A stretch of 63,491 bases of DNA, counting the filler, from Reclinomonas americana ATCC 50394 (lineage: Eukaryota): assembly GCA_048213135.1 (NCBI GenBank). It is 15 parts of 15 records of this genome, joined end to end, with 100 filler letters (N's around TTAATTAATTAA, not from the genome) between each part and the next. Parts side by side here need not be neighbours in the genome. Positions count along the whole stretch, not along the records: positions 48,521 to 57,173 come from AFZH01020460.1; 14 more parts are not named here. One strand, written 5' to 3'. Of this stretch, positions 2,528-63,372 are shown piece by piece (positions within the stretch are counted from its first letter, which is position 1; each line of letters begins with the position of its first letter). The translations under genes and the position numbers were made by a program. The notes beneath the pieces were generated by a model, which was given only the letters and a program-made list of their open reading frames with translations, was not told the DNA's origin and did no database searches.

Positions 2528-2863
2528 CTCCGATTGCTCTCTCTCTCTCTCTCTTGCGTCCCGTTGTCTCCACTTGCATATTGTTTGCATACTCCATGAG
2601 GCACACAGTCTTGGAGTCTCTATGCAGTCCCCCTGTCTCCAATTCTCGAACCTCGATCATGCTGATCACATATGTTCTCGCATTCTCCGACCTCCGCGCA
2701 CCACCTCCTGTGGAGTGCATTGAGTTGAGCACTTTAGCAGCTGGAGTCTCTCCCATTTCCCTATCCCTCCCTTGATCGCCTCTTTGCATCTCACTCTCTC
2801 TTCTCCGTCCCTTCTCCATCCTTTACTCTTCTCCGTTCCTCCCTCCTTACTCCCCTCATGCAG

Positions 2864-5824
2864 GGTGGAAAAGTACCGACCTCGCTACCTCCGCGACATT
2901 GTCGGCAACGAGGACGCCGTGGAGCGCCTCAAGATGATTGCCGAGGACGGCAATGTGCCCAACATTATCTTGGCGGTGAGAGCGCGCCCTCTCTCTCTCT
3001 CTCTCATTCACTCAATCACTCTGCTCTGCCTTCTCTTTCTCTTTCTCACTGTCCCTCTCTCGACCATCTCATCAGGGTCCACCCGGCATCGGCAAGACAA
3101 CAAGCATTCTGTGTCTGGCCCGAGAGATCTACGAAAAGGCGCTGATACGCGAGGGTACACCACAGGAGCAGCTGTTGCGTCACGCAGGCTCCTCCCCCTG
3201 TCCATCTCTTCGTCTCACCCTTTCCCTCTGCAAAGCGGAGCCGGCGTCGCACACTGCTTGAAGGAGGGCGTGTTGGAGCTGAACGCCTCTGATGACCGGT
3301 ACGTGCCAATCACTGTCCTTTCTCCTTCTCCTTCTCCGTTCGCTCACCGTCTCGCAGAAAACTCGACACGGTGCGCGGCAAGATCAAGATGTTTGCACAG
3401 AAGAAAGTCACACTGCCCGGCAACAGTCACAAGCTGATCATTTTGGACGAGGCCGACAGGTGACGCTGTGCGCCGCTCTCTGCTCTCCTGTGCCTAAACC
3501 GCTGATCGTGCAAACTCCGCAGTATGACCAAGGAGAGCCAGCAGGCGCTGCGTCGCATCATGGAGCAATTCTCGTCGACCACGCGTTTCGCCCTCGCCTG
3601 CAACACGAGCACAAAAGTCATTGAGCCGATTCAGAGTCGTTGCGTCACTCACTCTTTTGCCTCACAGCCACAGTCTTGTTTGCTGAACCGAATGGTCGCG
3701 CAGGATGTGCCGTGGTCCGCTTCCAACGACTGGCCGACGACGAAGTCTTGCACCGATTGACAGAAGTTGTCGAGCAGGAGCATGTACGTGGGGCTCTCTA
3801 TCTATCTCTCGCCAGTTGTGCAAGTCGGCGGCTCACCCATTTGTCGTGCAGGTGACGTGCACGGACGATGGCTACGAGGCGCTGTTGTTCTCGGCCGAGG
3901 GTGATTTGCGCAATGCGCTCAACAGCCTGCAGTCGACGGTGACGGGGTTTGGAATTGCGACTGCGGAGAATGTGTTCAAGGTGGGCAAAAGGGAGAAGGG
4001 AGGAGGAAAAGGGAGAGGGCAAAGGGGAAGAGAGAGAGAGAAAGAGAAACAGAGAGGCGCAAGCGGAGAGAGGACGAGACAGAAAGAGGGACACAGCGCG
4101 AAGAGAGATGGAGACAAAGGGCACCAATCAATCTTTCCCAGTTCTTTATCGAACATCTCGCCTCCCACCGTCCCGCGATGCTTTCTGTATGTTTTATGTC
4201 ACTGGATCCTCTCTTGATCGGTTTGGTGAAGCGTGTGTGATGAGGAGAGTGTGAGAGTGGAACGTAGCAGGGAGGTCCGCGGGACCAGAGAGAGCGACGG
4301 AGCGGGAAAAAACAGAGAAAATTGCCAGGCGCAGACACAGAATGCAGTTGTTTTGTATTGAGGGTTGATACTTATCAGGATAACTGAGTTAGAAGGCAGA
4401 GAGTGAGAGAGAGAATGAGAGAGAGACTTGGTGAGACCGTGAAGTTAGAAAATGTTTGTGCATGCAGCGGAGTGTGAATGCGTCTTGATGTGTGAGCCTG
4501 AATTGGAGACTAAAGACACACAGCTAGATGATAAATGGTTGGGAAACAGGAGAGGCAATGAGTGATACAGGAGCGCCAGCTCATGTCCCTTTATTGCTTT
4601 GCAGGTGTGCGATCAACCGCCGCCAGTCGCAGTCAAGGAAATCCTTGAGCAGTGCTTGCGGGGGCAGTTGAAGGATGCGCTGGAGACGATGTCATCGCTG
4701 TATGAACAAGGTGAGGAGGGCAAGGACGATCAACGCTTTCTCTCTCGAATTTGCTGCGAACGCAGTTGTCGTGGTCTCTTGTCGAGCTCTGCTACTTGCC
4801 AGTCCATCTTGCCCATGTCTGTGCACTCCTAGAGCTTGTTCTGTTGCTCGTTGCTATACTCTGCAGTGTCGACACTCTCCTACTCTTGAGTCTCTCAGTC
4901 TCTCAGTCTCTCTCTCAGTCTCTCTCTCTCTCTCAGTCTCTCTTAGTGTTTCCTAGTTTCTCAGTCTCTTAGTCTCACTCTCAATCTCTATTAGTCTCTC
5001 ATGTCTCTCTCAATCTCTCAGTCTCTGTCACTAATCCTCTCTCAGTCGCTCTCAGCGTCTGTCAGTCTCTCTCAGTCTCAGTCTCGACTCTCGGTTCTTC
5101 TTCTCATTGTTCTCTCTCCCCCCCCTTTGTTCCTTTCCCTTCCCCTTCTCCTTCCGCTCCCCTTCTCCTTCCGCTCCCACATTCCCTTCCCTTTCCTTCC
5201 TCCTTTCCCTTCCCCCTCGCTCCTTCCGCTCCACACCATTTCTCTCCCTTTACCCATCCATCGCCTCCCCTTTCCTTCGACATCTTTCCTCTCATAGTGA
5301 TCGGGTGAGTGTAGAAGAAGAAGCGAAGAGTAGGGGAGGCGAAGGATGGGGGAGGGATGGAGAAGGGGGGACAAGAGGAACGGTGCAGAGACGAAAGGAA
5401 GGGTGTGGAGGGGAAGAGAGAACAGCAGAGCAGAATAGAGAGGGGGAGGGAGAGTGTCACATGGAATTCCCCACGCCCATCTGTTTCCTCCCATCCTCTT
5501 TATCTGCTTCTCTACACCCTCCGTCTCACCCATCCCTTCTCTCGCATCCCCTTTAAACCCTTCCCCTTGTCAGGCTACTCCGCCGTCGACCTCATCAAAA
5601 CCATGAACCGTGTGGTGGAGTACCGCAGCGGCGATCTCAATCTCTCCGAGGCGCAGCAACTGGCGCTGCTGCGCGAGATCGGCATTGTGCACATGCGCAT
5701 CTCGCAGGGCGTCGACTCGGTGCTGCAGCTGGCGGGCCTGGTGGCACGTCTCTGTTCTGCCGCCGCGTCCACTGCGCCATCCGCCCCACCAGCACCACCA
5801 ACGGCGGCCGCAGTGCGCTCATGA
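2864..5824 (+). CDS. RFC2: Replication factor C small subunit (human RFC2 / yeast Rfc4 type); first exon not located
   Basis: [86 protein letters not shown] and [11 protein letters not shown], joined across GT-AG introns. Confidence 0.95.
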
Positions 5825-46613: not shown

Positions 46614-47065
46614 TCACTCAACGAGGAACACTTCGTAGTCTGCCACCTGGATGGTCAGCGATCCCATCAGAGTCGTACAGTCAAGTGCTCCACCGTCGAT
46701 ACTCTGGTAATGGTAAGGGTTGCTGCCGCTGTTGCTGTTGCCGTTGCAGCTGCCAGCCAAGTAAAGGTCATTCCCGCCAAAGTCTGATCCAAGGTTAGAG
46801 CGGTGATAAACGGCACTCTGCTTGCTACCGTCCTTTAGCGCAAAGCGTCGAGCTCTTGCACCGCTCCACGATGCCGAGAACAAGAAGCTGGTGCAGGATG
46901 GGTCGGCAGCATAGGCACCTGACGGATGAGATTGCCAGGAAACAGGCGTGTATCCACCACACACTCGTCCCGTCGAGGACTTGACCACGGTCAGTGTTGC
47001 TCTGCGCGCAGACACACACTCGTCAGAAACCGAGCAACAGCAAACTCGCTCTCTCTCTCTCTCTC

Positions 47066-47113
<48 letters not shown>

Positions 47114-48870
47114 ACTTACTCACCCACGATTGTCACATCGCTGGTGGAATGTGGCTGCCGCAAACCCATCTCGACTGCCCTTGAACAGCAACGTCAACTT
47201 GGGCACACTCCCACCACCGCCACGCGCATGCTCCACCCATTGCAGCACCACTCGCCCATCCGCCGCACTTTAGAGGTCGCTGTCAATCTTCCTCTCCGCT
47301 CGCTCCCGCTCCTCTCGTTCCCCGGCCTCGCGCTCTCGTTCCTCCCGCTCTCTGGCCTGCCTCTCCCGCTCCTCCTGCTCCCTGGCCAGTCTCTCCCGCT
47401 CAGCCGCCTCTCGTTCCTGAATCGCTCTTTCTCGCATCTCCAGTGGCTCGAGACGAGCGAGCAACTGCAGATGAAAGCAAGAGACAGAATGAGGAGAAAA
47501 CGCACCCGAAATCCACCGACATTTACACAACAGACCTGAACAACACCTCTCTCAAGAGCTTCTCGCATGCGCTGCTCTTCGGCAAGTTGCTGACGAGCAA
47601 CTTGAATATCAGCTTGCCTCGCCTGTTGCTCGGCAGCGAGTTGCTGGCTGTATTGCACAAGCCGCTCGTCTGTCAAGCGCAGTCGCTCCTCAACAGCCTG
47701 CCTCGTCTGTTGCTCCATTCCAATGCACTCATTTGCAGCTTGCAGCTCACGAGTCAATCGCTCCTCAACAAGTTGTCTCGCTTGTTGCTCTTGAGCCAGC
47801 ATCCCCACACAATTGACCAGTCGCTCATCTGTCATTTGTCTCGCCTCTCTCTCCTGAGCCACCATCTGAGACACCTCCCGCACCCGACCATGCAGCTGTG
47901 GATACACAACTTACATCAGCATGAATCACCAGCACCATCTACTGCCCATCACTCAAAACTCACCTCTCGCAGTGGTCGCTCCACTCGCAACACATCGCAC
48001 ACTCGCTCATGCTCCTCCCTCTCACCAATTACACCACGCCACTCACACTCCAGATCACCACCACGACACACTGTGTGCTGCAGTCGGCATTCCGTTTCTG
48101 TCACAAGAGAACAAATCAGTGTCATGTCACACATCTCTTTCATCAAAGCACACTCACCAAGATGCCGCTGCATATCAGCCAGTGAACAATGCTGCTGGCA
48201 TCCACGCGGACACACTCGCATGCACCCACTCCAGCTGTGCTCCACCATCTCACTCAGCGCCATCCTCGCTCCACACCCGAGCGGGCACTCGCGCAAGCAG
48301 CCACTCCACTCGTGCTCCACGGTGCGATAGAGTGTCATCTGTTGTCCACATCTCTCGCAGGCATGCGGACACTGCGATGGACCGTGTGTGCGGTAGTAGT
48401 CGCCCACCGTCTGTATATATNNNNNNNNNNNNNNNNNNNNNNNNNNNNNNNNNNNNNNNNNNNNTTAATTAATTAANNNNNNNNNNNNNNNNNNNNNNNN
48501 NNNNNNNNNNNNNNNNNNNNCCTTCCCTTTACCTACACACTCTCTCTCTCTCTCTCTCTCTCTCTGTCTTCACTCACCAAACACACTGGACACACATACT
48601 CGTCCGCCATTGCCCGCGACTCTTGCACGACATGCTCCATCCACAAACGCGGTGGCTTTGCCTTCTTCTCCTCCTCCTTCTCCACTTCTGATGGAGGACG
48701 ACGATGCACAGCGCGCACGACACAGAACTCATATTGTTGTTCCTCGTCAGAGAGTCGCATCATATCACTTGCTGCTCGAGAACAATTTGACTGTCTCCAT
48801 CTGCGCGAGGAGGAGGAAGAGGAGCAGAGGCAGAGCCACTGCCTTCACCGCTACCGTCTTTGAATCCCAT
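46614..48870 (-). pseudogene. RING / TRAF-ZnF / coiled-coil / TLDc gene, copy 1 (disrupted)
   Basis: Same exons as copies 2-6, but with a 5-nt insertion near 48761-48765 and an in-frame TAA at 47270-47272 just before the TLDc domain. The middle RING exons fall in the gap. Confidence 0.75.
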
Positions 48871-49130
48871 TCTCTGTCACCAATGACGAAGGACTGATGA
48901 GTGAGGGCACCGTAATGCAGGACGTACTTTCTCCGTCGTGAAGCCGCAGTGCAGCAACAGACTGCGTTGTTGGTGATGGGGTCTGTGCGACTGCTCAATT
49001 GCCACCCCTGCTCTTGACAGAGAGATGCACAACGAGCGACAAGACACATTTGCTTCTGTTCGCCAGCTTGGTGCTTGCGCATGCACGACGGATGAATCGC
49101 GAATGACCAAGAAGCACAGTGTTCTGTTGT

Positions 49131-51885
49131 TCACTCAACGAGGAACACTTCGTAGTCTGCCACTTGGAAGTTCTTCGATCCCATCAGTGTCGCGTCGTCA
49201 TATACTCCACCGTCGGTGCTCTGGTAATTGCCAGGGACGCTGTTGCTGTGGGTGTTGATGTTGCAATTGTCTGCCAAGTAAAGGTCAGCTCCACCAGCGA
49301 AGACTGGTCCAATGTCAGAGCAGTGATAAAAGGCCTGCTGTTTCTTGTCATCCTTCAGTGCAAAGCGTCGTGAATTTGCACCACTCCACGATGCCGAAAA
49401 CAAGAAGCTGGAGCCGGATGGATCAGCAGCGTGCACGCCTAATACATGAGACTGCCACGGAATCGGCGTGTACCCGCCACACACTCGTCCGGTCGACGAC
49501 TTGACCACAGTCAGCGTCGGTCTGAACACAGCCACTCACCCATCAGCTATCTAAACAACAAACTCGCTCTCCATTCCTCCATCACTCACCCACGATTGTC
49601 ACAGCGCTGATGGAATGTGGCCGCCGCAAACCCATCTCGACTACCCTTGAACAGCAACGTCAACTTGGGCACACTGCCACCGCCACCTCGTGCCTGTTGC
49701 ACCCAGTGCAACACCACTCGCCCATCCTCTGCACTCAGCAGATCGCTATCAACTTTCACCTGTGCGAGCACGCGCTCCTCTCGTTCTCTGGCCTCGCGCT
49801 CCCGCTCCTCGCGTTCCCTGGCCTGCCTCTCCCGCTCCTCCAGCTCTCTGGCCAGCCGCTCCCGCTCAGCTGCCTCTCGCTCCTGGATTGCTCGCTCACG
49901 CACCTCCAGTGGCTCGAGACGGGCGAGCAGCTGCAGATGAAAGCAAGAGAGAGAATTAGGAGAAAACGCACTCGAACGGTCCACTGACAATCACACGACA
50001 GACCTCAGCAACACCTCTTTCGAGAGATTCACGCATGCGCTGCTCTGCAGCAAGTTGCTCGCGAGTAGCTTGACTCTCAGCTTTCCTCGCCTGTTGCTCC
50101 GTGACAATGCGCTCATTTGCAGCTTGCAGCTCGTGTGCCAATCGCTCTTCGACAACCCGCCTCGCATCCTTCTCCTGTGCCAGCTGCTCCCTGCCTTCGG
50201 CCACCATTTGAGAGAGCTCTCGCACCCGACCATGCAGCTGTACACATAACCAATAGCCACATTAGCTGCTTAAATGACCAGCAGCATCCCCTGTCCACCA
50301 TTCCAAACTCACCTCTCGCAGCGGTCGCTCCACTCGCAGCACGTCGCATACTCGCTCATGCTCCTCCCTCTCACCAATGATCCCACGCCATCCACATCCC
50401 AGTTCACCACCACGACACACTGTCTGCTGCAGTCGGCACTCCGTTTCTGCCACGAGAGAACAAAGGGAGACACCACATCAGTGTCTTTCACACTACTCTG
50501 CTCATCAAGCACACTCACCAAGATGCCTCTGCATCTCCGCCAGTGCACACTGCTGCTGACATCCACGCGGACACGCCCGCATGCACCCACTCCAGCTGTG
50601 CTCCACCATTTCACTCAGTGCCATCTTCGCTCCACACCCAAGTGGACACTCGCGCAAGCATCCACTCCACGCATGCTCAGCGGTGCGATCGAGTGTCATC
50701 TGTTGTCCACATCTCTCGCAGGCATACGGGCACTGTGTGAGGCCATGTGTGCGATAATAGTCGCCCACCGTCTGTTCTCATCCACCATGAGCGGAGAGGG
50801 AGAGAGGGAGAGAGAGGACAATGATAAGAAAGACGAAAGACAGAGAATGCGAGCGAGAGAAGAGAACGAGAGAATTCACCGAGAATGAGAGGGAGGGCAA
50901 AAGAGGTAGAGAAAATGACACGGTGCAAAGAAATGAGAGAATGACACTGAGAATGAGAGGGAGGAGAGAGAGAATGACACCACAAGATAAGAGAGAAAGA
51001 GGGCAAGGGAGAAAGAGAGAACGAGAGTGCGCAAGAGAGAGAGAGAAGCACAACAAAACACACAAACCATGGGTGCGTGGCACAGCGGGCATGTGATCTG
51101 CATTCCCACTCATAGTCAGCAAAGCAAGACAGCTATCATGCACAACGAGCACCATCTCCCCAACCTTCAAGTTGCCATACATGACCACATTCCGTCGCTG
51201 AGCCTCCTTCAGTGTGGCCAGCGATGTGACTCCATCGCCACACAGATCCGACCCGGCCTCCGTCACATGCTCACTGCCAAGTCACTCATTACCATCAGTT
51301 GTGCATGACATGGAAGACCTTGCCTCTCTCTCACTCACCGACAGATGAAGTGCAGCTCGTGGGCACACAACACGAAATCCGGAGCACACAGATCCTGTTG
51401 GCAGCACACAGAAGTCATGTCACAATAAGCACGATGAAGCAGAGCGAAGGGTGGTTGCAGGCGCGACTCATGAAAAAAGACTGTTCTCTCTCTTCATGTG
51501 ATGGGGATGTGCACGAAACACTGTTGCAACCTGACGAGAGCGCGCATGCTTCTCTCTCCCTTTCCCCTTTGCTCTCTCTCTCTCTCTCTCTCTCCCACTC
51601 TTCACTCACCAAACACACTGGACACACATACTCGTCCGCCATTATCCGCGACTCTTGCACGACATGCTCCATCCACAAACGCGGTGGCTTTGCCTTCTCC
51701 TCCTCCTTCTCCACTTCTGATGGAGGACGACGATGCACAGCGCGCACCACACAGAACTCATACTGCTCGTCGTCAGAGAGTCGCATCACTTGCTGCTCGA
51801 GAACAATCTGACTGTCACCATCTGCACGAGGAGGAGGAGGAGCAGAGGCTGAGCCACTGCCTTCACCACCGTCTTTGAATCCCAT
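49131..51885 (-). CDS. RING / TRAF-ZnF / coiled-coil / TLDc protein, copy 2 (complete)
   Basis: MGFKDG..YVCPVCL|DLCAPDFVLCAHELHFICR|EH..NLK|ITCPLCHAPM|C-C-H-C fingers|coiled coil|KLTLLFKGSRDGFAAATFHQRCDNRG|PTLTVVKS..GGYTPIPW..SFLFS..GPVF..DL..DYEVF. Confidence 0.88.
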
Positions 51886-52148
51886 TCTCAGTGAGGGAGA
51901 GTTGAGAGAGGACACATGCAGGACGTCTTTTCTCCGACGTGAAGCAGTGCATCAGCAACAACAGTCTGAGTTGCTGGTGATGGGGTCTGTGCGACTGCTC
52001 AGTGGCCGTCCCTGCTTTTGATAGAGTGATGTGCAACGAGCGACAAAACACACTTGCATGTGGTCGCCTGTGTCGCGATCGCCTGTGTCGTGCTTGAGCT
52101 GTAAGACGGATGTTGTGCACATGACCAGGCATCACAACATTATGTTAT

Positions 52149-54590
52149 TCACTCAACGAGAAACACTTCGAACTCTGCCACCTGGAAGTTTCTCGCTCCC
52201 ACCAATGACATACTGTCGTATACGTCGAAGTCAGTGATGTAATACGAGAGAAGATTGCTGTAGCTGTTGTTGTTGTTGTTGCAGCTATCAGACAAGTAAA
52301 GGCTGTGGCCACTGCCAAAGCATGGGCCGTGGTCAGAGTAGAGGCGAATGGCTCGATGTTTCTGATCATGCTTAAGTGCAAAGCGACGCGCGCTTGCATC
52401 ACTCCACGACGCCGAGAAAAGGAAGCTGGTACCCGACACATCCGCGACCCAAGAAGCCGAAGCTGGAGACTGCCACGAGACAGGCGTGTACCCGCCACAC
52501 ACTCGTCCCGTCGACGACTTGACCACAGTCAGAGTCGGTCTACACACACTCACTCACTCGTCAGTCACACAAACAACAAGCAATCTCTCTGCATCAATCA
52601 CTCACCCACGATTGTCACACAGCCGATGGAATGTCGCGGCCTTGAATCCATCCCGACTGCCCTTGAACAGCAACGTCAGCTTGGGTACACTCCCGCTGCC
52701 TCCTCGCGCCTGCTGCACCCATCGCAGCACCACTCGCGCATCTGCCGCACTCAGCAGATCGCTGTCGGTTTTCAACTTCGCCAGCTCCCGCTCCTCTCGT
52801 TCTCTGGCCTCACGCTCCAGTTCCTCTTCTTCCCTCGCCACTCTCTCCCGATCAGCTACCTCGCGTTCCTGCATCGCTCGTTCACGCATCTCCAGCGACT
52901 CGAGACGGTCAATTAGCTGGAAATTAAGAAAATGAATAAGCCAAGAGAAATCAACCACTCGGTACGCCGAAGCGTAATAAATATCACCTTAGAAACTCTT
53001 GCCTCGAGAGCTTCACGCATCTTCTGCTCTGCGGCCAATCGCTCGGTGTACAACGCAAGGCGTTCATCGGCTGCGACTACAGCAGCCTGTCGCGTCTTTC
53101 GCTCATCAGCCAACTGCTGACTACATTTGATGAGGCGCTCGTCAGCAGCTTGCAGTTCAGCCTGTCTCGCCTCCCTCTCCTGAGCCACCATCTGTGACAG
53201 CTCTCGCACCCGACCATGCAGCTGTACACATACATGCAAACCACATCAGCTGTCTGCATGACCAGCAGCATCCGCAGCCTACGCACCTCTCGCAGCGGTC
53301 GCTCCACTCGCAGCACGTCGCATACTCGCTCATGCTCCTCCCTCTCACCAACAATACCACGCCATCCACACCCCAGTTCACCACCGCGGCACACTGTGTG
53401 CTGCAGACGGCACTCCGTTTCTGCCACGAGAGACATCAAGTCAGTGTCATGATCCACCTCTCTTTCCTCTCCAAAGCACACTCACCAAGATGCCGCTGCA
53501 TATCAGCCAATGAACTCTGCTGCTGACATCCACGCGGACACTCTCGCATGCACCCACTCCAGCTGTGCTCCACCATCTCACTCAGCGCCATCCGTGTTCT
53601 ACACCCGAGTGGACACTCGCGCAAGCATCCACTCCACTCATGCTCCGCCGTGCGATCCAGCGTCATCTGCTGTCCACACCTCTCGCATGCGTACGGGCAC
53701 TGTGATGGACCATGTGTGCGGTAATAGTCGCCCACCGTCTGCTCTAATCCACAGTGAGCGGAGAGGGAGAGAGAGGGAGAGGACGATGGGAAGGAAGATA
53801 GAGACTGAGAATGAGAGGGAGTGAAGAGAGCGAGAGAAGACACCAAGAATGAGAGGGAGGGCAAGAGAGGTAGAGAGAGAGAGAGAGAGAGAATGACAGG
53901 CTGCAAGAAAAAGAGAGAATGACACCAAGAATGAGAGGGAGTGCAAGAGAAGCAGAGAGAGAGAGAGAGAGAATGACACAGTGCAAAGAAAATGAGAGAA
54001 TAACACTGAGAATGAGAGGGAGCGAGAGAGACACCACAAGAAGAGAGGCAAATAAGACGGAGAAACACAACAAGACAAACCATGGGTGCGTGGCACAGCG
54101 GGCATGTGATCTGCATTCTCACACTCGCTGTCAGCAAACAAACAAGACAGCCATCATGCACAACGAACATCATCTCCCCAACCTTCAAGTTGCCATAGAT
54201 GACCACGTTCCGTCGCTGTGCCTCCTTCAGTGTGGCCAGCGATGTGACTCCATCGCCACACAGATCCGATCCAGCGGCAGTCACATGCTCACTGTCAAGT
54301 CACGCGTTACAAACAGTTGTGCATGACACGGAAGGCCTTGCCTCTCTTCGCACACTCACCGACAGATGAAGTGCAGCTCGTGCGCACACAACACGAAATC
54401 CGGAGCACACAGATCCTGTTGCAGCACAGAAGTCATGTCACAATAAACACGACGAAGCAGAGCGAAGGGCGGTGGCAGGCGCGACTCATGAACAGAGAGT
54501 GCTCTCTCTCTCTCCATGTGATGAGGATGTGCACACGAATCAATGCTGCGGCCTGCAAAGAGTGTGTGCTTGTCTCTCCTTTCCCTACTT

Positions 54591-54626
<36 letters not shown>

Positions 54627-54914
54627 ACTCACCAAACACACTGGGCACACATACTCGTCCGCCATCATCCGCGACTCTTGCATGACATGCTCCATCCACA
54701 AACGAGGTGGCTTTGCATCTTCCTCCTTCTCCACTTCTGATGGAGGACGACGATGCACAGCGCGCACCACACAGAACACATATTGTTCCTCGTCAGAGAG
54801 TCGCATCACTTGCTGCTCGAGAACAATTTGACTGTCTCCATCTGCGCGAGCAGGAGGAGGGGGAGGAGCGGAGGCAGAGCCACTGCCTTCACCTCCGCCG
54901 TCTTTGAATCCCAT
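52149..54914 (-). CDS. RING / TRAF-ZnF / coiled-coil / TLDc protein, copy 3 (complete)
   Basis: All exons present. TLDc motifs GSRDGFKAATFHRLCDNRG, GGYTPVSW, GPCFGSG and EFEVF. Confidence 0.88.
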
Positions 54915-55190
54915 TCTCTGTCGCCGATCCTGTCGCCAATGTCGAAGGGAAGAGAGGACACGTGATGCAGGACGTCTTTTTCTCCGACGTGAAGCCGCAG
55001 TGCAGCAACAACAGTCTGCATTATGGGTTACTGTGCGACTGCTCAGTGGTCATCTCTGCTCTTGATAGTGAGATGTACACCGAGCGACAAACACATTTGC
55101 GTCTGTTCGCCAGCATGGTGCTTGAGCATGAACGATGCACGCGATCTGGATGACACCGGAACGACCAGGCAACAGAGTGTTGCCTGCTAT

Positions 55191-57038
55191 TCACTCAACA
55201 AGAAACACTTCGTAGTCGGCCACTAGGAATTTGTACGATCCCATCAACGTCGTGCTGTCACATGCTCCACCGTCGGTGCTCTGGTAATTGACAGGGTTGC
55301 TGCAGCTGTTGCTCTGGCTGTTGCAGTTGTCTGCCACGAGGAGGTCGTTGCCACCGTAGAAGATTGGTCCAAATCCAGAGTGGTGATAAACGGCCTGCTG
55401 TTTCTTGTCAGCCTTCAGTGCAAAGCGCCGCGCATGTGCACCACTCCACGACGCCGAGAACAAGAAGCTGGTGCCGGATGGATCGGCGACAACGGTGACC
55501 GTGGACTGCCACGGGACAGGGGTGTACCCGCCACACACTCGTCCCGTCGACGACTTGGCCACAGTCAGCGTCGGTCTGCACACAATCACTCACCCATCAG
55601 CCACCGAGCAATACAAGCTGTCTCCCCTTCCCTCAATCACTCACCCACGATTATCACAGCGTTGATGGAATGTGGCTGCCCTGAATCCATCTCGACTGCC
55701 CTTGAACAGCAACGTGAACTTGGGCACACTCCCACCACCTCGCACCTGCTGCACCCATTGCAGCACCACCCGTCCATCCGCAGCACTCAGCAGATCGCTG
55801 TCGACCTTCCTCTCCGCTCGCTCGCGCTCCTCTCGTTCCCTGGCCTGCCGCTCTCGCTCCTCTCGCTCCCTGGCTTGCCTCTCTCGCTCCTCCTGTTCTC
55901 TGGCCAGCCGCTCCCGCTCAGCTGCCTCTCGTTCATGGATCACTCGTTCACGCATCTCCAGTGGCTCGAGACGGGCGAGAAGCTGCAGATGAACGCAAGC
56001 GAGAGAATGAGGAGAAGACGCACTCGAACGGTCCACTGCCATTCACACAACAGACCAGTGCAAGCTGCTGGCGGCACTCGACCAGCATTCCAACGCAGTC
56101 GCCAAGACGATCGTCAGCGACTTGTCGCGCCTCTCGCTCACAGGCCACCATCTGAGAGAGCTCTCGCACTCGGCCATGAAGCTGTGCACAACAATACAAG
56201 TCGCATTAGATGCACTAAATAACCGGCAGTATCCACTGTGCATTCCAAATTCACCTCACGCAGTGGTCGTTCCACTCGCAACACGTCGCACACTCGCTCA
56301 TGCTCCTCCCTCTCACCAACAACACCACGCCATGCACACCCCAGTTCACCACCACGACACACCGTGCGCTGCAGCCGGCACTCCGTTTCTGTCGCAAGAG
56401 AACACAAGAGACACACCACATGAGTGTCATGACACACCAGATCTCCATCAAGCACACTCACCAAGATGCCGCTGCATCTCCGCCAGTGAACACTGCTGCT
56501 GACACCCACGCGGACACGCCCGCATGCACCCACTCCAACTGTGCTCCACCATCTCACTCAGTGCCACCCTCGCTCCACACCCAAAAGGACACTCGCGCAA
56601 GCATCCACTCCACTCATGCTCCGCCGTGCGATCCAGGGTCATCTGCTGTCCACATTTCTCGCATGCGTGCGGGCACTGCGTGAGGCCATGCGTGCGGTAG
56701 TAGTCGCCCACCGTCTGTTCTCACCCAAAGTGAGTGGACGGATGAAACGAGGGAGGGCACAGGGGGACGATGAAAAGGATGACCAGAGACAGAGAACGAG
56801 AGGAAGCGAAGAGAACGCGAGAAGACCGAAAATTAGAGGGAGGGTAAGAGAGGCCGAAAGAAGAAGTGAACGATGAGAAGATCAGAGTCAGAGAAGGCGA
56901 GGGCGAGAAGAGAACGAGAAGACACCAAGAATGAGAGGGAGGGCAAGAGAGGTAGAGGGAGAGAGGGAGAGAATAAGAGGATGCACAGAAATTGAGAGAC
57001 TGACACTCGGGAGAAGACAGAGAGAGAAAGACACCACA

Positions 57039-57080
<42 letters not shown>

Positions 57081-57513
57081 AGAGAGATAGACAACAACGA
57101 CACAACAACAGTGGTGCGTGACACGAGGTGGACTATGTGTTCGTGCTATTCTACACTCTATTCGTACACGAACNNNNNNNNNNNNNNNNNNNNNNNNNNN
57201 NNNNNNNNNNNNNNNNNTTAATTAATTAANNNNNNNNNNNNNNNNNNNNNNNNNNNNNNNNNNNNNNNNNNNNTTGCATGACTTGCTCCATCCACAAACG
57301 CGGAGGCTTTGCCTTGTCCTCCTCTTTCTCCACTTCTGACGGAGGACGACGATGCACAGCGCGCACCACACAAAACACATATTGTTCCTCGTCAGAGAGT
57401 CGCATCACTTGCTGCTCGAGAACAATCTGACTGTCTCCATCTGCGCGAGCAGGAGGAGGGGGAGGAGCGGAGGCAGAGCCACTGCCTTCACCTCCGCCGT
57501 CTTTGAATCCCAT
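55191..57513 (-). CDS. RING / TRAF-ZnF / coiled-coil / TLDc protein, copy 4 (RING exons in gap; short coiled coil)
   Basis: Exon 1 at 57274-57513; ZnF, coiled-coil and TLDc exons at 55191-56714. Linkage across the gap is assumed. Confidence 0.78.
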
Positions 57514-57770
57514 TCTCTGTCGCCAATGTCGAAGGGAAGAGAGGACACGTGATGCAGGACGTCTTTTTCTCCGACGTGAAGCCGCAGCGAAGCAGCAGCA
57601 ACAATCCGCGTTGTGTGGGGTCTGTGCGACTGCTCAGTGGTCATTCCTGCTCTTGATAGTGAGATGCACAACGAGCAACAAGACACACTTGCATCTGTTC
57701 GCCTTTGTGGTGCCTGTGCATGCAAGATGGATGACACCTGAACGACCAGGCAGAACAGTGTTCTTGTTAT

Positions 57771-60023
57771 TCACTCGACGAGGAATACTTCGTAGTCTGC
57801 CACTTGGAAGTTCCTCGATCCCATCAATGTCGTGTCGTCAAATACTCCACCGTCGGTGCTCTGGTAATTGACAGGTTTGCTGTAGCTATTGCTGTTGCTG
57901 TTGCAGTTGTTAGTCAAGTAAAGGTCGTAACCACCATAGAAGGCTGGTCCGTATCCAGGATAGTGGCCAACGGCCTGCTGTTTCTTGTCATCCTTCAGTG
58001 CAAAGCGTCGTGAATTTGCACCACTCCACGATGCCGAAAACAAGAAGCTGGAGCCGGATGGATCAGCAGCGTGCACGCCTAATGCATGAGACTGCCACGG
58101 AATCGGCGTGTACCCGCCACACACTCGTCCGGTCGACGACTTGACCACAGTCAGCGTCGGTCTGAACACAGCCACTCACCCATCAGCTATCTAAACAACA
58201 AACTCGCTCTCCATTCCTCCATCACTCACCCACGATTGTCACAGCGCTGATGGAATGTGGCCGCCGCAAACCCATCTCGACTACCCTTGAACAGCAACGT
58301 CAGCTTGGGCACACTGCCACCGCCACCTCGTGCCTGTTGCACCCATCGCAGCACCACTCGCACATCCTCTGCACTCAGCAGATCGCTATCAACTTTCACC
58401 TGTGCGAGCACGCGCTCCTCTCGTTCTCTGGCCTCGCGCTCCCGCTCCTCCCGCTCCTCCAGCTCTCTGGCCAGCCGCTCCCGCTCAGCTGCCTCTCGCT
58501 CCTGGATTGCTCGCTCACGCACCTCCAGTGGCTCGAGACGGGCGAGCAGCTGCAGATGCAGCAAGAGAGAGAATGAGGAGAAAACGCACTCGAACGGTCC
58601 ACTGACAATCACACGACAGACCTGAGCAACACCTCTCTCGAGAGATTCACGCATGCGCTGCTCTGCGGCAAGTTGCTCGCGAGCAGCTTGAATCTCGGCT
58701 TGCCTCGCTTGTTGCTCCATGACGATGCACTCATTTGCAGCTTGCAGCTCGCGAGTCAATCGCTCCTCAACAGCTTGTCTCACTTGCTGCTCAGCGGCTA
58801 GCCGCTCATCTGTCACTTGTCTTGCCTCCCGCTCACTGGCCACCATCTGAGACAGCTCTCGCACCCGACCATGCAGCTGTGCACACAAACACAACCCACA
58901 TCAGCTGCCTGCATGGCCAGCAGTACCCACAGCCTACACACCTCTCGCAGTGGTCGCTCCACTCGCAGCACATCGCACACTCGCTCATGCTCCTCCCTCT
59001 CACCAATTACACCACGCCATCCACACCCCAGTTCGCCACAACGACACACTGTGTGCTGCAGTCGGCACTCCGTTTCTGTCACAAGAGAACAAATCGGTGT
59101 CATGATGCACGACCCTCTCCTCCAAGCACACTCACCAAGATGGCGCTGCATATCCGCCAGTGAACACTGCTGCTGACATCCACGCGGACACGCTCGCATA
59201 CACCCACTCCAGCTGTGCTCCACCATTTCACTCAGCGCCATCCTCGCTCCACACCCGAGCGGGCATTCGCGCAAACATCCGCTCCACTCATGCTCCGCCG
59301 TGCGATCGAGTGTCATCTGTTGTCCGCATCTCTCGCATGCGTACGGGCACTGTGATGGACCGTGTGTGCGGTAATAGTCGCCCACCGTCTGTTTCATCAT
59401 CCGCAGTGAGCGGAGAGAAAGAGAGGGAGAGAGAGGATGATGGGAAGGAAGATAAGAGACAGAGAATGAGAGGGGGTGAAGAGGACGAGAGAAGACACCA
59501 AGAATGAGAGGGAGGGCAAGAGAGGTAGAGGGAGATGGAGAGAGAGAATGACACCACAAGATAAGAGAGAAAGAGGGCAAGGGAGAAAGAGAGAAAGAGA
59601 GTGCACAAGAGAGAGTGAACGAGAGTGCGCAAGAGAGAGAGAGAGGAACATCACACGAAGAGAGAGAGAGAGAGAGAGAGAGAAGCACAACAAAACACGC
59701 AAACCATGGGGGCGTGGCACAGCGGGCATGTGATCTGCATTCTCATTCCCCGTCAGCAAACAAGGCAGCCAGCAATGCACAACGAGCATCATCTCCCAAC
59801 TTTCAAGTTGCCATACATGACCACATTACGTCGCTGAGCCTCCTTCAGTGTGGCCAGCGATGTGACTCCATCGCCACACAGATCCGACCCGGCCTCTGTC
59901 ACGTGCTCACTGCCAAGTCACTCGTCACAAACAGTTGTGCATGACACGGAAGACTTTGCCTCACTCACCGACAGATGAAGTGCAGCTCGTGGGCACACAA
60001 CACGAAATCCGGAGCACACAGAT
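57771..60023 (-). CDS. TRAF-ZnF / coiled-coil / TLDc gene, copy 5, lacking exon 1 (N-truncated or pseudogene)
   Basis: Exons from DLCAPDF onward are intact. Intron-1 sequence joins upstream-region sequence directly near 60110-60135, with no gap and no MGFKDG..CPVCL exon. Confidence 0.72.
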
Positions 60024-60383
60024 CCTGCAAACAAGGGAAGTCATGCCACAATAAGCACGATGAGAAGAGAGAAGGATTGTGGCAGGCGCGACACATGAAC
60101 AAAGACTGTGCTCTCTCTCTCTGCAAATGACGATGAGAGAGGACACGGGATGCAGGACGTCGATTCTCCGACGTGAATCCGCAGCGAAGCAGGAACAGCA
60201 GACTGCGTTGTTGGTGATGTATTCTGTGCGCCTGCTCAGTGGCCATCCCTGCTCTTGATAGTGAGATACACAACGAGCGACAGAACACACTTGCATGTTT
60301 TCGCCAGCGTGGTGATCGAGCATGCAAGATGCACGCGAGACGGATGACACATGAATCACCAGGCAACAGAGTGTTCTTGTTAT

Positions 60384-62156
60384 TCACTCAACGAGGAACA
60401 CTTCGTAGTCAGCCACTTGAAAGTTCCGCGATCCCATCAGTGTCGTGGTGTCATATGCTCCACCATCAGTGCTCTGGTAATTGCCAGGTTGGCTGTAGCT
60501 GTTGCTGCTGCTGTTGCAGCTGTCGAACAAGATAAGGTCATGACTACCGTGGAACCAGGGTCCATATCCAGAACCGTGAGCAACGGCCTGTTGTTTCCTG
60601 TCAGCCTTCAGTGCAAATCGTCGCGCATTTGCACCACTCCACGACGCCGAGAACAAGAAAGTGGTGCCCGACACATCCGCGACCCAAGAAGCCGAAGCTG
60701 GAGACTGCCACGATACAGGCGTGTACCCGCCACACGCTCGTCCCGTCGACGACTTGACCACTGTCAGCGTCGCTCTGCGCACAGTCATTCATCGATCAGA
60801 CACCGCGCACAACGAACGCTCTCACTCTCCCCTCAATCACTCACCCTCGATTGTCACATCGCTGGTGAAATGCGGCTGCCTTAAATCCATCTCGACTGCC
60901 CTTGAACAGTAATGTCAACTTGGGCACAGCAGCACCGCCACCTCGCGCTTGTTGCACCCACTGCAGCACCACTCGCGCATCTGCCGCACTCAGCAGATCG
61001 CTGTCGGTTTTCACCCTCGCCCTCTCCCGCTCCTCACGTTCCCTGGCCTCACGCTCCCGCTCCTCCCGCTCTCTGGCTTGCCGCGCTCGCTCCTCCTGCT
61101 CTCTGGCCAGTCTCTCCCGCTCAGCCGCCTCGCGCTCCTGAATCGCTCGTTCACGCTCTTCCAGTGGCTCGAGACGGGCGAGCAGCTGCAGATGAGAGCA
61201 AAGGAGAGTGAGGGGAGGAGCAATGCGCTCGAATGGTCCACTGACATTCACACAACAGACCTGAGCAACACCTCTCTCGAGAGTTTCGCGCATGCGCTGC
61301 TCAGCGGCGAGTAGCTCACCAGCAGCTTGGCTCTCAGCTTGTCTCGCCTGTTGCTCGGCAGCGAGTTGCTGGCTGCATTGCACAAGCCGCTCATCTGTCA
61401 ACCGCAGTCGCTCCTCAACAGCCTGCATCGCCAATTGCTCCATTACAATGCGCTCGTTTGCAGCTTGCAGCTCACAAGTCAATCGCTCCTCAACAGCTTG
61501 TCTCGCTTGTTGCTCATCAGCCAGTTGCCGGCTGCATTGAACAAGGCGCTCATCTGCCAACTGCATGCGCTCCTCAACAACTTGTCTTGCCTCCCGCTCA
61601 GTGGCTACCATCTGCGACAGCTCTCGCATCCGACCATGCAGCTGTGCACACAAACACAACCCATATCAACTGCATGAATGACCAGCAGCATCCGCAGCCA
61701 ACTCACCTCTCGCAGCGGTCGCTCCACTCGCAACACATCGCACACTCGCTCATGCTCCTCTCGTTCACCAACAATACCACGCCATTCACACCCCAGTTCA
61801 CCACCGCGACACACTGTGTGCTGCAGTCGGCATTCCGTTTCTGCAACAAGAGACACAACATCAGTGTCATGAAAATACTTCTCTCCGCCAAGCACACTCA
61901 CCAAGATGCCTCTGCATATCCGCCAGTGAACACTGCTGCTGGCATTCACGCGGACACGCCCGCGTGCACCCACTCCAGCTGTGCTCCACCATCTCATTCA
62001 GCGCCATCCTCGCTCCACACGCGAGTGGACACTCTCGCAAGCACCCACTCCACTCATGCTCCACGGTGCGATCCAGTGCCATCTGCTGTCCACACCTCTT
62101 GCAGGCATACGGGCACTGCGTCAAGCCATGTGTCCGGTAGTAGTCACCCACCGTCT
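60384..62156 (-). CDS. TRAF-ZnF / coiled-coil / TLDc protein, copy 6 (5' exons in gap)
   Basis: ZnF exon ~61899-62156, the longest coiled-coil exon, and intact TLDc exons. Confidence 0.82.
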
Positions 62157-62624
62157 GTTCTNNNNNNNNNNNNNNNNNNNNNNNNNNNNNNNNNNNNNNN
62201 NNNNNTTAATTAATTAANNNNNNNNNNNNNNNNNNNNNNNNNNNNNNNNNNNNNNNNNNNNAGAGAGAGAGAGAGAGAGAGAGAAGAGAGAGAAGAGAGA
62301 GAGAAAGAGACGCACAAGGAACGAGGTCAGTGGCAAGAATGGAAGAGAGGCAACGAAACTCAAGCAGAGAGACAGAGACAGACAATCAAGGAAGACAATG
62401 TGAGAGAGAGAGAGAGAGAAAGAAAGAAAGAAAGAAAGAAAGACACAGGTTGTGAGCGACAGCAAACCCCAGCGGAGACAAACAAGGATGCCAACACAGT
62501 GCGTGGCAGGAGCACGCTTTGGAAACAGCGCAGCAAGCCCGTGACAAATAGAAAGAAGCACACCAAAGATGACAACACTGACAACGCCAACAGAAGAAAC
62601 ATCCCCCCTTTTCCTATTCGCGCA

Positions 62625-63372
62625 CCATCGCCGTCTTATTCTTCTGCGACAAATCATTGTTGGCGGCCACCACTCGATCAAACTTCTCCTGCGCGTCCCT
62701 GCGCTCCCGTGCACTGTCGCGCCGCAGTTCACTGCGCCCCCCGCCAACCAATGGTCACCATCACGATCACGAAAGCATGCACGGCCACCCCTGCACGCAA
62801 CTCCAACTGCGCCTTTTGCTTCTCCACCTCCCGCATCGTCAGCTCCAGCTGCTCCGACTTGCGTTTCTGCATGCCACAACTTCATCAACTATCCTCCCCC
62901 TCCGCACCCTCCCTTTGCCTTCCCCGGCCACTCACCAAGTTCCCCGACAGAGTCTCATAGTCGCACTCGAGCTTGCGGATCTTCTCCGCCGACTGCTCAC
63001 GATACCCGAGATCCACCTGCCGCTGCTGCAATAGTGCCGCCACGCAGTCGAGCACCTGACGCGCCTCGTAGTCCTCGAGCGGCTGTCGTGACGACGAGGA
63101 GGCCAGCACCGACGGCAGGGTGGGGAAGTTGTGCTCGCGCAGGGAGCGGTTGACGTAGGCCAGGCGCTCTTCCACCGAGTCGACGGCCAGGCGGTCGCCG
63201 CCGCCGCCGCCGCCCGTCAGTTCGGAGCGAGGGTAGACGAGGGCGGAGGAGCGGGCGCTACGTGTGTGGGTGTGAGGAGAGAGAGGATGGAAAGGAAGAA
63301 GGGAGGATGGGTGAATGGCACCTGCGAAAGGGACTGTCCTCGGGTTCGTCGTCGTAGGGACTGCCGTCGACC
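62625..63372 (-). CDS. ADIP/SSX2IP (Msd1)-family coiled-coil protein, internal fragment
   Basis: VEERLAYVNRSLREHNFP..VLDCVAALLQQRQVDLGYREQSAEKIRKLECD resembles the ADIP pattern YLNQ.L...GFP..NCIY.LLQQRQRD.EFRE. Coiled-coil exons follow. Confidence 0.7.

Follow-up and report, generated by a model that had tools for sequence, protein, structure and literature searches.

The window analysed here, 63,491 nucleotides from Reclinomonas americana ATCC 50394 (assembly GCA_048213135.1; 15 parts of 15 records joined end to end with filler), consists of eukaryotic nuclear DNA in which GT..AG introns are short and (CT)n tracts numerous. It contains a tandem array of six paralogous genes whose products end in a TLDc domain. 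Within this domain lies a patch of 37 codons at which the paralogs differ strongly around a fixed scaffold. Our preferred reading, held with middling confidence, is that constraint on the TLDc domain of this family is weakest in the patch, that the patch is compositionally filtered and probably exposed, and that it stays diverse. As a discrete variable segment the patch is real, and its edges have biological meaning because they coincide with breakpoints of gene conversion. Support for a ratio of nonsynonymous to synonymous substitution rates (dN/dS, omega) above 1 declines once the analysis takes account of recombination, of local codon usage and of a probable pseudogene; adaptive diversification (omega >1) is no more than possible on these six sequences.

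The patch comprises codons 62-98 of the last exon (alignment columns 61-97) and lies within the TLDc domain (copy 2: Pfam PF07534, E 5.4e-11, 43.1 bits with a cut-off of 24.5, profile positions 53-169 of 170). The original prediction, made from the sequence alone, had described it as hypervariable, with almost only replacement changes and under diversifying selection. Its translations of copies 2 and 5 were exactly reproduced, as was the codon count for this pair: 17 of the 37 codons change the amino acid, 2 differ only silently and 18 are identical. Likewise, all six copies were seen to vary around a fixed scaffold, with G, F, L, C-N, S-x-S and Y present in all six and P and D in five. A predicted toggling between Tyr, His and Trp was borne out for Tyr (10.8% of the residues at variable columns) and His (7.2%), but not for Trp, with a single occurrence among 167 residues. 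Of the residues at the variable patch columns, 67% are Asn, Ser, Gly, Tyr, His or Asp and 2% are Lys, Arg or Glu; for the latter three, 14% was expected from the codon frequencies. Variable columns number 28 of 37 in the patch versus 41 of 91 in the remaining exon (Fisher p 0.0018), and the mean identity among the six copies is 0.53 in the patch and 0.80 in the region before it. A second variable loop following the W-Q-S motif was also confirmed, of which the six copies carry four variants; for the 15 pairs of copies combined, its proportions of synonymous (pS) and nonsynonymous (pN) differences were 0.73 and 0.40, respectively.

The patch has kept an old divergence that gene conversion erased elsewhere in the gene. 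The near identity of copies 2 and 5 upstream of the patch, intron included, was as originally described, with 2 differences in 49335-49700 (366 nt) and 6 in 49335-49800. It belongs to a conversion tract common to both copies, which stops exactly at 49335, the 5' edge of the patch and its first variable codon. An exception within the tract is formed by the coiled-coil repeats at approximately 49780-49859, where 9-12 columns in every 40 differ, most of them as gaps. In this repetitive coding stretch the length has changed: copy 5 is without part of the Glu/Arg-rich repeat (an ERQAREREE-type unit; 49780-49860 in copy 2, 58420-58500 in copy 5). Copies 2 and 5 differ at 1 of 183 nt of the exon before the patch, at 32 of 111 nt in it and at 6 of 90 nt after it; in the 3' flank the difference is approximately 15%. 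The sharp contrast between these two copies exists because a recent conversion tract of approximately 700 bp stops at the edge of the patch.

Trees of the separate segments were in conflict. Before the patch, copies 2 and 5 and copies 3 and 6 were paired with 96-99% support (bootstrap 99% for copies 2 and 5), whereas these pairings were unsupported in the patch. A breakpoint search (iqtree, HKY model, all 465 segments of a 4-codon grid, compared by the corrected Akaike information criterion, AICc) gave as its best model a division into five segments at codons 16, 36, 60 and 96, of which codons 60 and 96 mark the edges of the patch. The patch interior yielded a star-like tree with heavy homoplasy. 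The four-gamete test was failed by 41 of 66 informative site pairs, and the minimum number of recombination events (Rmin) inside the 111-nt patch was 7.

The description of the changes as almost only replacements did not hold: this character is an artefact of codon counting beside a fresh conversion tract. Of the 32 bases that differ between copies 2 and 5, 11, 11 and 10 lie at codon positions 1, 2 and 3, respectively. By the Nei-Gojobori method this pair has 9.0 synonymous (Sd) and 23.0 nonsynonymous (Nd) differences in the patch, giving a pS of 0.40, a pN of 0.26 and a ratio of 0.57. Two or three bases differ in 9 of the 17 replaced codons, and the codon count understates the silent changes because these sit inside replaced codons. 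Over all 15 pairs, the pN/pS ratio was 0.38-1.17 in the patch, 0.14-0.31 before it in 14 pairs (the fifteenth, copies 2 and 5, has no silent differences there) and 0.10-0.79 after it. The mean third-position divergence was 0.27 in the patch, 0.34 in the exon before it and 0.26 after it, and the pS of an old pair, copies 1 and 3, was 0.45, 0.59 and 0.45, respectively. The patch is not hypermutated, because third-position and synonymous divergence are not raised there; hypermutation confined to the patch was ruled out by the pairs lacking recent conversion, which are no more diverged at synonymous sites in the patch than in the flanks.

In addition, the patch is an island of unusual codon usage, a new observation absent from the original prediction, which matters in that it shifts the omega estimate of the patch from 0.79 to 0.45. 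Third positions are 87% pyrimidine in the patch versus 47% in the rest of the exon. In each copy, NNY codons (third position C or T) account for 31-34 of the 36-37 codons of the patch, versus 37-47 of 89-91 elsewhere (p <=3e-4 for each copy), and 0-1 of 12-15 four-fold codons end in G, versus 16-25 of 49-57 elsewhere. Ser is encoded by AGC in 24 of 34 cases, compared with 13 of 75 elsewhere, where TCG dominates. NNY codons fill 60 of 65 places at the 11 most variable columns (those with at least 4 residues), and conserved four-fold codons carry the same third-position bias. CpG is scarce, with 2-5 occurrences per 108-111 nt versus 14-19 per 177-183 nt before the patch. The bias is due in part to the amino acid composition and to a degenerate (AAC AGC)n tract. 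This tract forms the second half of the patch (49240-49270 in copy 2 and the equivalent positions elsewhere) and encodes a run of Asn and Ser. It is cryptically simple sequence and could also vary by slippage; no length change was found in the patch among copies 2-6.

Selection was tested with our own Python implementation (GY94/F3x4) of the codon models M0, M1a, M2a, M7, M8 and M8a, and not with codeml. Site posteriors were naive empirical Bayes (NEB). In the five-partition fits of M7, M8a and M8 the branch lengths were fixed at the M1a estimates, and the simulations likewise used fixed branch lengths. Under M0, omega before, in and after the patch was 0.28, 0.79 and 0.38 with shared codon frequencies and 0.28, 0.45 and 0.37 with region-specific ones. 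The value of 0.79, obtained with exon-wide frequencies, did not differ from 1 (p 0.34); the value of 0.45, with patch-specific frequencies, was below 1 (likelihood-ratio test statistic, LRT, 8.6), and the fit was better by 9 log units. Omega of the flanks (0.28-0.38) was significantly below 1. Without copy 1, the three values were 0.33, 0.71 and 0.36. In an M1a fit to the patch alone, 61% of the sites were placed at omega 1.

In the comparison of M1a with M2a, the LRT fell from 13.5 (p 0.001) on one tree to 7.2 (p 0.027) with three a-priori partitions and 3.2 (p 0.20) with five data-driven partitions, or 3.15 (p 0.21) when region-specific codon frequencies were added to the latter. For the patch alone it was 4.4 (p 0.11) on its own tree and 1.4 (p 0.5) with patch-specific frequencies. 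The wrong (star) tree inflated the test on the patch to 10.3 (p 0.006). Without copy 1, one, three and five partitions gave LRTs of 11.4, 3.8 (p 0.15) and 1.8 (p 0.40). The test was not powerless, because 24 of 30 data sets simulated under the fitted M2a on the three-partition trees exceeded an LRT of 5.99. From the diversifying selection originally proposed, the discrete variable segment was retained, but a dN/dS above 1 was not established after correction for recombination.

Several observations weigh against weak constraint as the explanation. In every fit, the top site class had an omega of 1.5-2.4 (point estimates) and covered 15-35% of the sites. With three partitions, M7/M8 gave an LRT of 13.6 (p 0.001) and M8a/M8 one of 7.4 (p 0.003); with five partitions these were 8.2 (p 0.017) and 2.95 (p ~0.04), both tests being more liberal here than M1a/M2a. 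None of 30 simulations under M1a on the three-partition trees reached an LRT of 5.99, where 7.2 was observed. Between copies 2 and 5, silent changes are scarce in codons whose residue is unchanged (2 over 11.7 sites, pS 0.17, like the downstream flank) and common in replaced codons (pS 0.64), a pattern that fits fast replacement at the latter. Lys, Glu, Gln, Trp and Met account for 4 of 167 residues at the variable patch columns and for 34 of 244 at the other variable columns of the exon. In 43 family members from other organisms, conservation is not at its lowest in the patch (mean identity 0.39, versus 0.27 before it); upstream conversion contributes to the reversed order among the six copies. 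Finally, the predicted surface exposure comes from the strand pattern in a model of a homolog (P0015, described below).

These data bear on the strongest competing explanation, namely that a recognition surface has come under diversifying (positive) selection recurrently, like the SPRY loops of TRIM5-type proteins, and that the paralogs form an immune-like or conflict-driven repertoire in which selection keeps the patches different despite gene conversion. We consider it possible but doubtful. The omega class, the M8a/M8 result with three partitions and the M1a simulations all speak for it, as do the binding-site-like amino acid composition and the fact that the patch of copies 2 and 5 is an island between more similar flanks, with breaks at its edges. 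The position of the TLDc domain also agrees with it: among the 23 relatives that were scanned, the domain was seen behind BTB_2, BTB-BACK, B-box/coiled-coil/fn3 or Sina/TRAF zinc fingers, and E3-ligase scaffolds normally carry their recognition domain at that position. When the window copies were set against the internal repeats of five multi-TLDc proteins, two unrelated ones, P0003 (7 repeats) and P0004 (3 repeats), had the same variability profile (Spearman 0.53 and 0.46), in which the N-terminal half is conserved, the post-Trp loop is very variable and the C-terminal half is variable. However, in the other three (P0142, P0007 and P0021) the profile was weak or lacking (Spearman 0.22, 0.15 and 0.21). 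Moreover, omega of the whole patch never exceeded 1 and was significantly below 1 with patch-specific frequencies. M1a/M2a was non-significant with five partitions, for the patch on its own tree or with its own frequencies, and with three or five partitions without copy 1. The rise of the LRT under a wrong tree is a known artefact of recombination, and there are only six sequences, with heavy homoplasy within the patch.

The protein folded for the structure was P0015, a single-domain relative of 184 residues with 48% identity over the exon; its alignment comprised 42 relatives. The model had a predicted local distance difference test (pLDDT) score of 93 and a predicted template modelling (pTM) score of 0.88. 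Compared with the TLDc structures of NCOA7, OXR2 and mEAK-7 it gave Z scores of 20-21 and a root mean square deviation of 1.8-2.7 A; with Skywalker and Oxr1p included, the Z scores were 17-21, and with Rtc5p 14.2. On this model the patch covers strands 117-119, 123-127, 133-136, 145-147 and 153-155 with their loops, a five-strand meander. Sites with a high NEB posterior for the omega >1 class are spaced i, i+2 (63, 65, 67; 71, 73; 79, 81; 91, 93, 95) with conserved residues between them, which in the model is compatible with one exposed face of a sheet. By this modelling, the patch is probably on the protein surface. A search of the PDB sequences with the single protein gave no match, and the profile of the six copies hit antibody lambda light-chain variable domains non-significantly (E 0.45 and 3.7), which was taken as a chance resemblance of Gly/Ser/Tyr-rich beta strands.

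According to PMC9263379, the mEAK-7 residues that touch the V-ATPase are G276/H277, P316/Q317, Y341, T354, Y367 and K384. In the HMMER alignment, P316/Q317 correspond to the post-Trp loop, which is the second variable loop of the window copies. Y341, T354, Y367 and K384 fall at approximately residues 110-155 of P0015 (near-constant offset of 229-231, approximate to within a few residues), that is, on the short helix preceding the patch and on the patch itself. As far as these published contacts go, the partner-contacting elements of mEAK-7, the post-Trp loop and the C-terminal half, coincide with the variable regions of the window copies. The patch is a putative partner-binding face differing among the paralogs because of this mapping of contacts, the strand pattern and the E3-type position of the domain.

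Under weak constraint, the following course of events would account for the data. The patch would be a run of short beta strands and loops in which the inward scaffold residues (G, P, F, D-L, C-N, S-x-S and Y) are kept while alternating, presumably outward-facing positions change. Approximately half of its codons evolve near the neutral rate, with the others under purifying selection, and the changes are ordinary point substitutions at all three codon positions. Interlocus gene conversion repeatedly homogenises the remaining gene, and the patch is a phylogenetic segment of its own with long, star-like branches. Conversion into the patch may be either selected against or blocked by the mismatch density of the patch itself. 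The patch and the post-Trp loop may together form the partner-binding face of this TLDc subfamily, in which case the paralogs would probably differ in their binding partner.

Decay of the array, with redundant or dead copies and a patch that merely drifts, is quite unlikely. It could be argued from copy 1, which has an in-frame TAA, a deletion of one patch codon and a change of the conserved Pro to Ser, as well as a longer intron with a microsatellite; this copy is probably a pseudogene, or else its stop is an assembly error. Copies 2-6, however, have open last exons, canonical GT..AG introns and all scaffold residues. The low omega of the flanks, the persistence of the omega pattern when copy 1 is left out and the filtered amino acid composition at the variable positions also contradict decay. 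Scarcely credible is a local mutational or codon-level mechanism that yields more amino acid changes without stops, as with the AGY Ser codons of immunoglobulin complementarity-determining regions (CDR) or the AAY codons of diversity-generating retroelements (DGR): the codon-usage island is present in every copy, with G-ending four-fold codons near absent and AGC and NNY codons prevailing, yet differences are spread evenly over codon positions 1, 2 and 3, divergence at third positions is not increased, the bias derives partly from composition and the (AAC AGC)n tract, and the adenines of conserved codons (AAC, AGC, TAC) are invariant, with no adenine-specific pattern. DGR-like adenine mutagenesis was ruled out by these invariant adenines together with the changes at all three positions.

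The array was delimited by families of direct repeats on the minus strand at approximately 46.6-63 kb, which gave the unit spacing (Table 1). With the exons of copy 2 as queries, tblastn found the zinc-finger exon and the two TLDc exons six times each, and no further copies within the window outside the array. Each unit encodes, in order, Cys/His zinc-finger repeats, a Glu/Arg-rich coiled coil and the C-terminal TLDc domain. The intron that splits the TLDc domain is 66-70 nt long, except in copy 1, where it is 122 nt. Against Pfam, the zinc-finger exon matched zf_UBZ (E 1e-4) and zf-TRAF (E 2.3), both below the cut-offs; its nearest ESM Atlas clusters were zf-TRAF (0.93, 10 of the 10 best hits, 166 shared features). 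No RING or B-box match reached the Pfam threshold in the window, where the upstream open reading frames (ORFs) are interrupted by introns; a CPVC...HDGCLVC...CPLC pattern in these ORFs suggested a RING by eye only, without a Pfam match. The Pfam scan gave no SPRY (PRY-SPRY, B30.2) domain, with TLD reported instead, and the C-terminal domain is not a MATH/TRAF-C domain, as Pfam gives TLDc there.

Table 1. Positions in the 63,491-nt window of the features described in the text
Feature	Position	Strand	Basis or remark
Tandem array of six paralogous genes (copies 1-6), unit 2.4-3.0 kb	46614..63000 (upper end approximate)	-	direct-repeat families
Patch, copy 1; 36 codons, one deleted, conserved Pro is Ser	46707..46814	-	translation and alignment
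Patch, copy 2; 37 codons	49224..49334	-	translation
Patch, copy 3	52242..52352	-	translation
Patch, copy 4	55284..55394	-	translation
Patch, copy 5	57864..57974	-	translation
Patch, copy 6	60477..60587	-	translation
Second variable loop (HVLGVHAA), copy 2, after W-Q-S	49425..49448	-	four variants among six copies
Last exon, copy 2, including stop codon	49131..49521	-	Pfam (TLD positions 53-169), script
Intron of 68 nt (GT..AG) splitting the TLDc domain, copy 2	49522..49589	-	read from sequence, script
Recent conversion tract common to copy 5, copy 2 side	49335..50056	-	96-100% identity per 100 columns
Zinc-finger exon, copy 2; repeated C..C..H..C units, TRAF-type-like	50505..50777	-	Pfam sub-threshold, ESM Atlas
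In-frame TAA, copy 1, start of TLDc domain	47270..47272	-	CTG in the other five copies

The window also contains pairs of 44-N runs with 12 bases between them at 14 places (2428, 6811, 9376, 11700, 14415, 16412, 17896, 20720, 23991, 27450, 32458, 48421, 57174 and 62162). Three of these pairs lie within the array, adjoining the zinc-finger exons of copies 1, 4/5 and 6, and gene models are partly hidden there. Outside the array, the ORF at 2724-3437 (plus strand) encodes a protein stretch that we take to be typical of a replication factor C small subunit.

A HMMER search of the protein library gave 2090 proteins at E <=0.001, none above 48% identity. A homology search with the longer proteins gave none at E <=1e-5, and two metagenome scans, with the single protein and with the alignment of the six copies, gave no relative. 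The relative P0120 has hints of Sina_ZnF and zf-TRAF before its TLDc domain, both below the Pfam cut-offs; by BLASTP the zinc-finger exon had no significant similarity to it. P0003 (1833 aa) consists of seven tandem TLDc domains with near-identical N-terminal and variable C-terminal halves; a Cys-rich region plus a hydrophobic segment come after them. Either a surface protein or a tandem array fused into one gene model is possible.

The window domain resembles the canonical TLDc domains (OXR1/OXR2, NCOA7, TBC1D24/Skywalker, mEAK-7, yeast Oxr1p and Rtc5p) in its match to PF07534, in the scaffold motifs and in the fold of its 48%-identical homolog. It differs in that alignments of the subfamily profiles to the solved chains are confined to the N-terminal half and the final strand and do not span the patch, and in that it stands behind zinc fingers and a coiled coil in a tandem array of six copies. 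With PRY-SPRY proteins of the TRIM5/TRIM22 type the genes share the order of zinc finger, coiled coil and C-terminal beta-sandwich, the clustering of paralogs and the variable segments on a conserved scaffold; however, they have a TLD domain and no SPRY domain, with no RING or B-box above the Pfam threshold. SPRY loops have a dN/dS well above 1, a level that the tests did not establish for the patch. The repeated C..C..H..C fingers followed by a coiled coil recall the TRAF proteins (RING, TRAF zinc fingers, coiled coil and MATH domain), but the window genes have TLDc instead of the C-terminal MATH domain and their zf-TRAF match is far below threshold. Plant nucleotide-binding leucine-rich repeat (NLR) clusters and the major histocompatibility complex (MHC) are alike in their mosaic history and in conversion tracts that end at a variable segment. 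In those systems conversion homogenises the framework. Positive selection on recognition residues is well documented there, but not in this array.

The roles known for TLDc domains are mainly in V-ATPase regulation and in oxidative stress. PMC11834939 interprets TLDc expansions in ciliates and algae through these roles, and PMC12284398 lists a TLDC2-like gene among positively selected genes in Symbiodinium. A literature search of limited reach found no paper tying TLDc to hypervariability, variable surfaces or E3-type architectures. A more far-reaching proposal, which we regard as speculative and improbable, is that the array is a protist repertoire of TRAF-like ubiquitin-ligase adaptors in which TLDc was recruited as the variable recognition module, its binding face written almost wholly in NNY codons, in which a change at the first or second position never yields a stop, as a germline receptor surface tuned for evolvability and kept diverse against conversion. 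If this were true, other eukaryotes would harbour an unrecognised class of substrate or non-self recognition domains, namely the similar TLDc modules that follow BTB, B-box and Sina/TRAF scaffolds.

The patch is also a warning case. A count of 17 replaced and 2 silent codons looked like strong positive selection, an appearance that largely dissolved when account was taken of codons with several hits, of gene conversion, of local codon usage and of a pseudogene. As to the biology of the family, the array suggests a different role for the large TLDc subfamily represented by the library proteins, one in which the C-terminal face varies among paralogs. If that role holds, what these TLDc proteins recognise would become a testable question.

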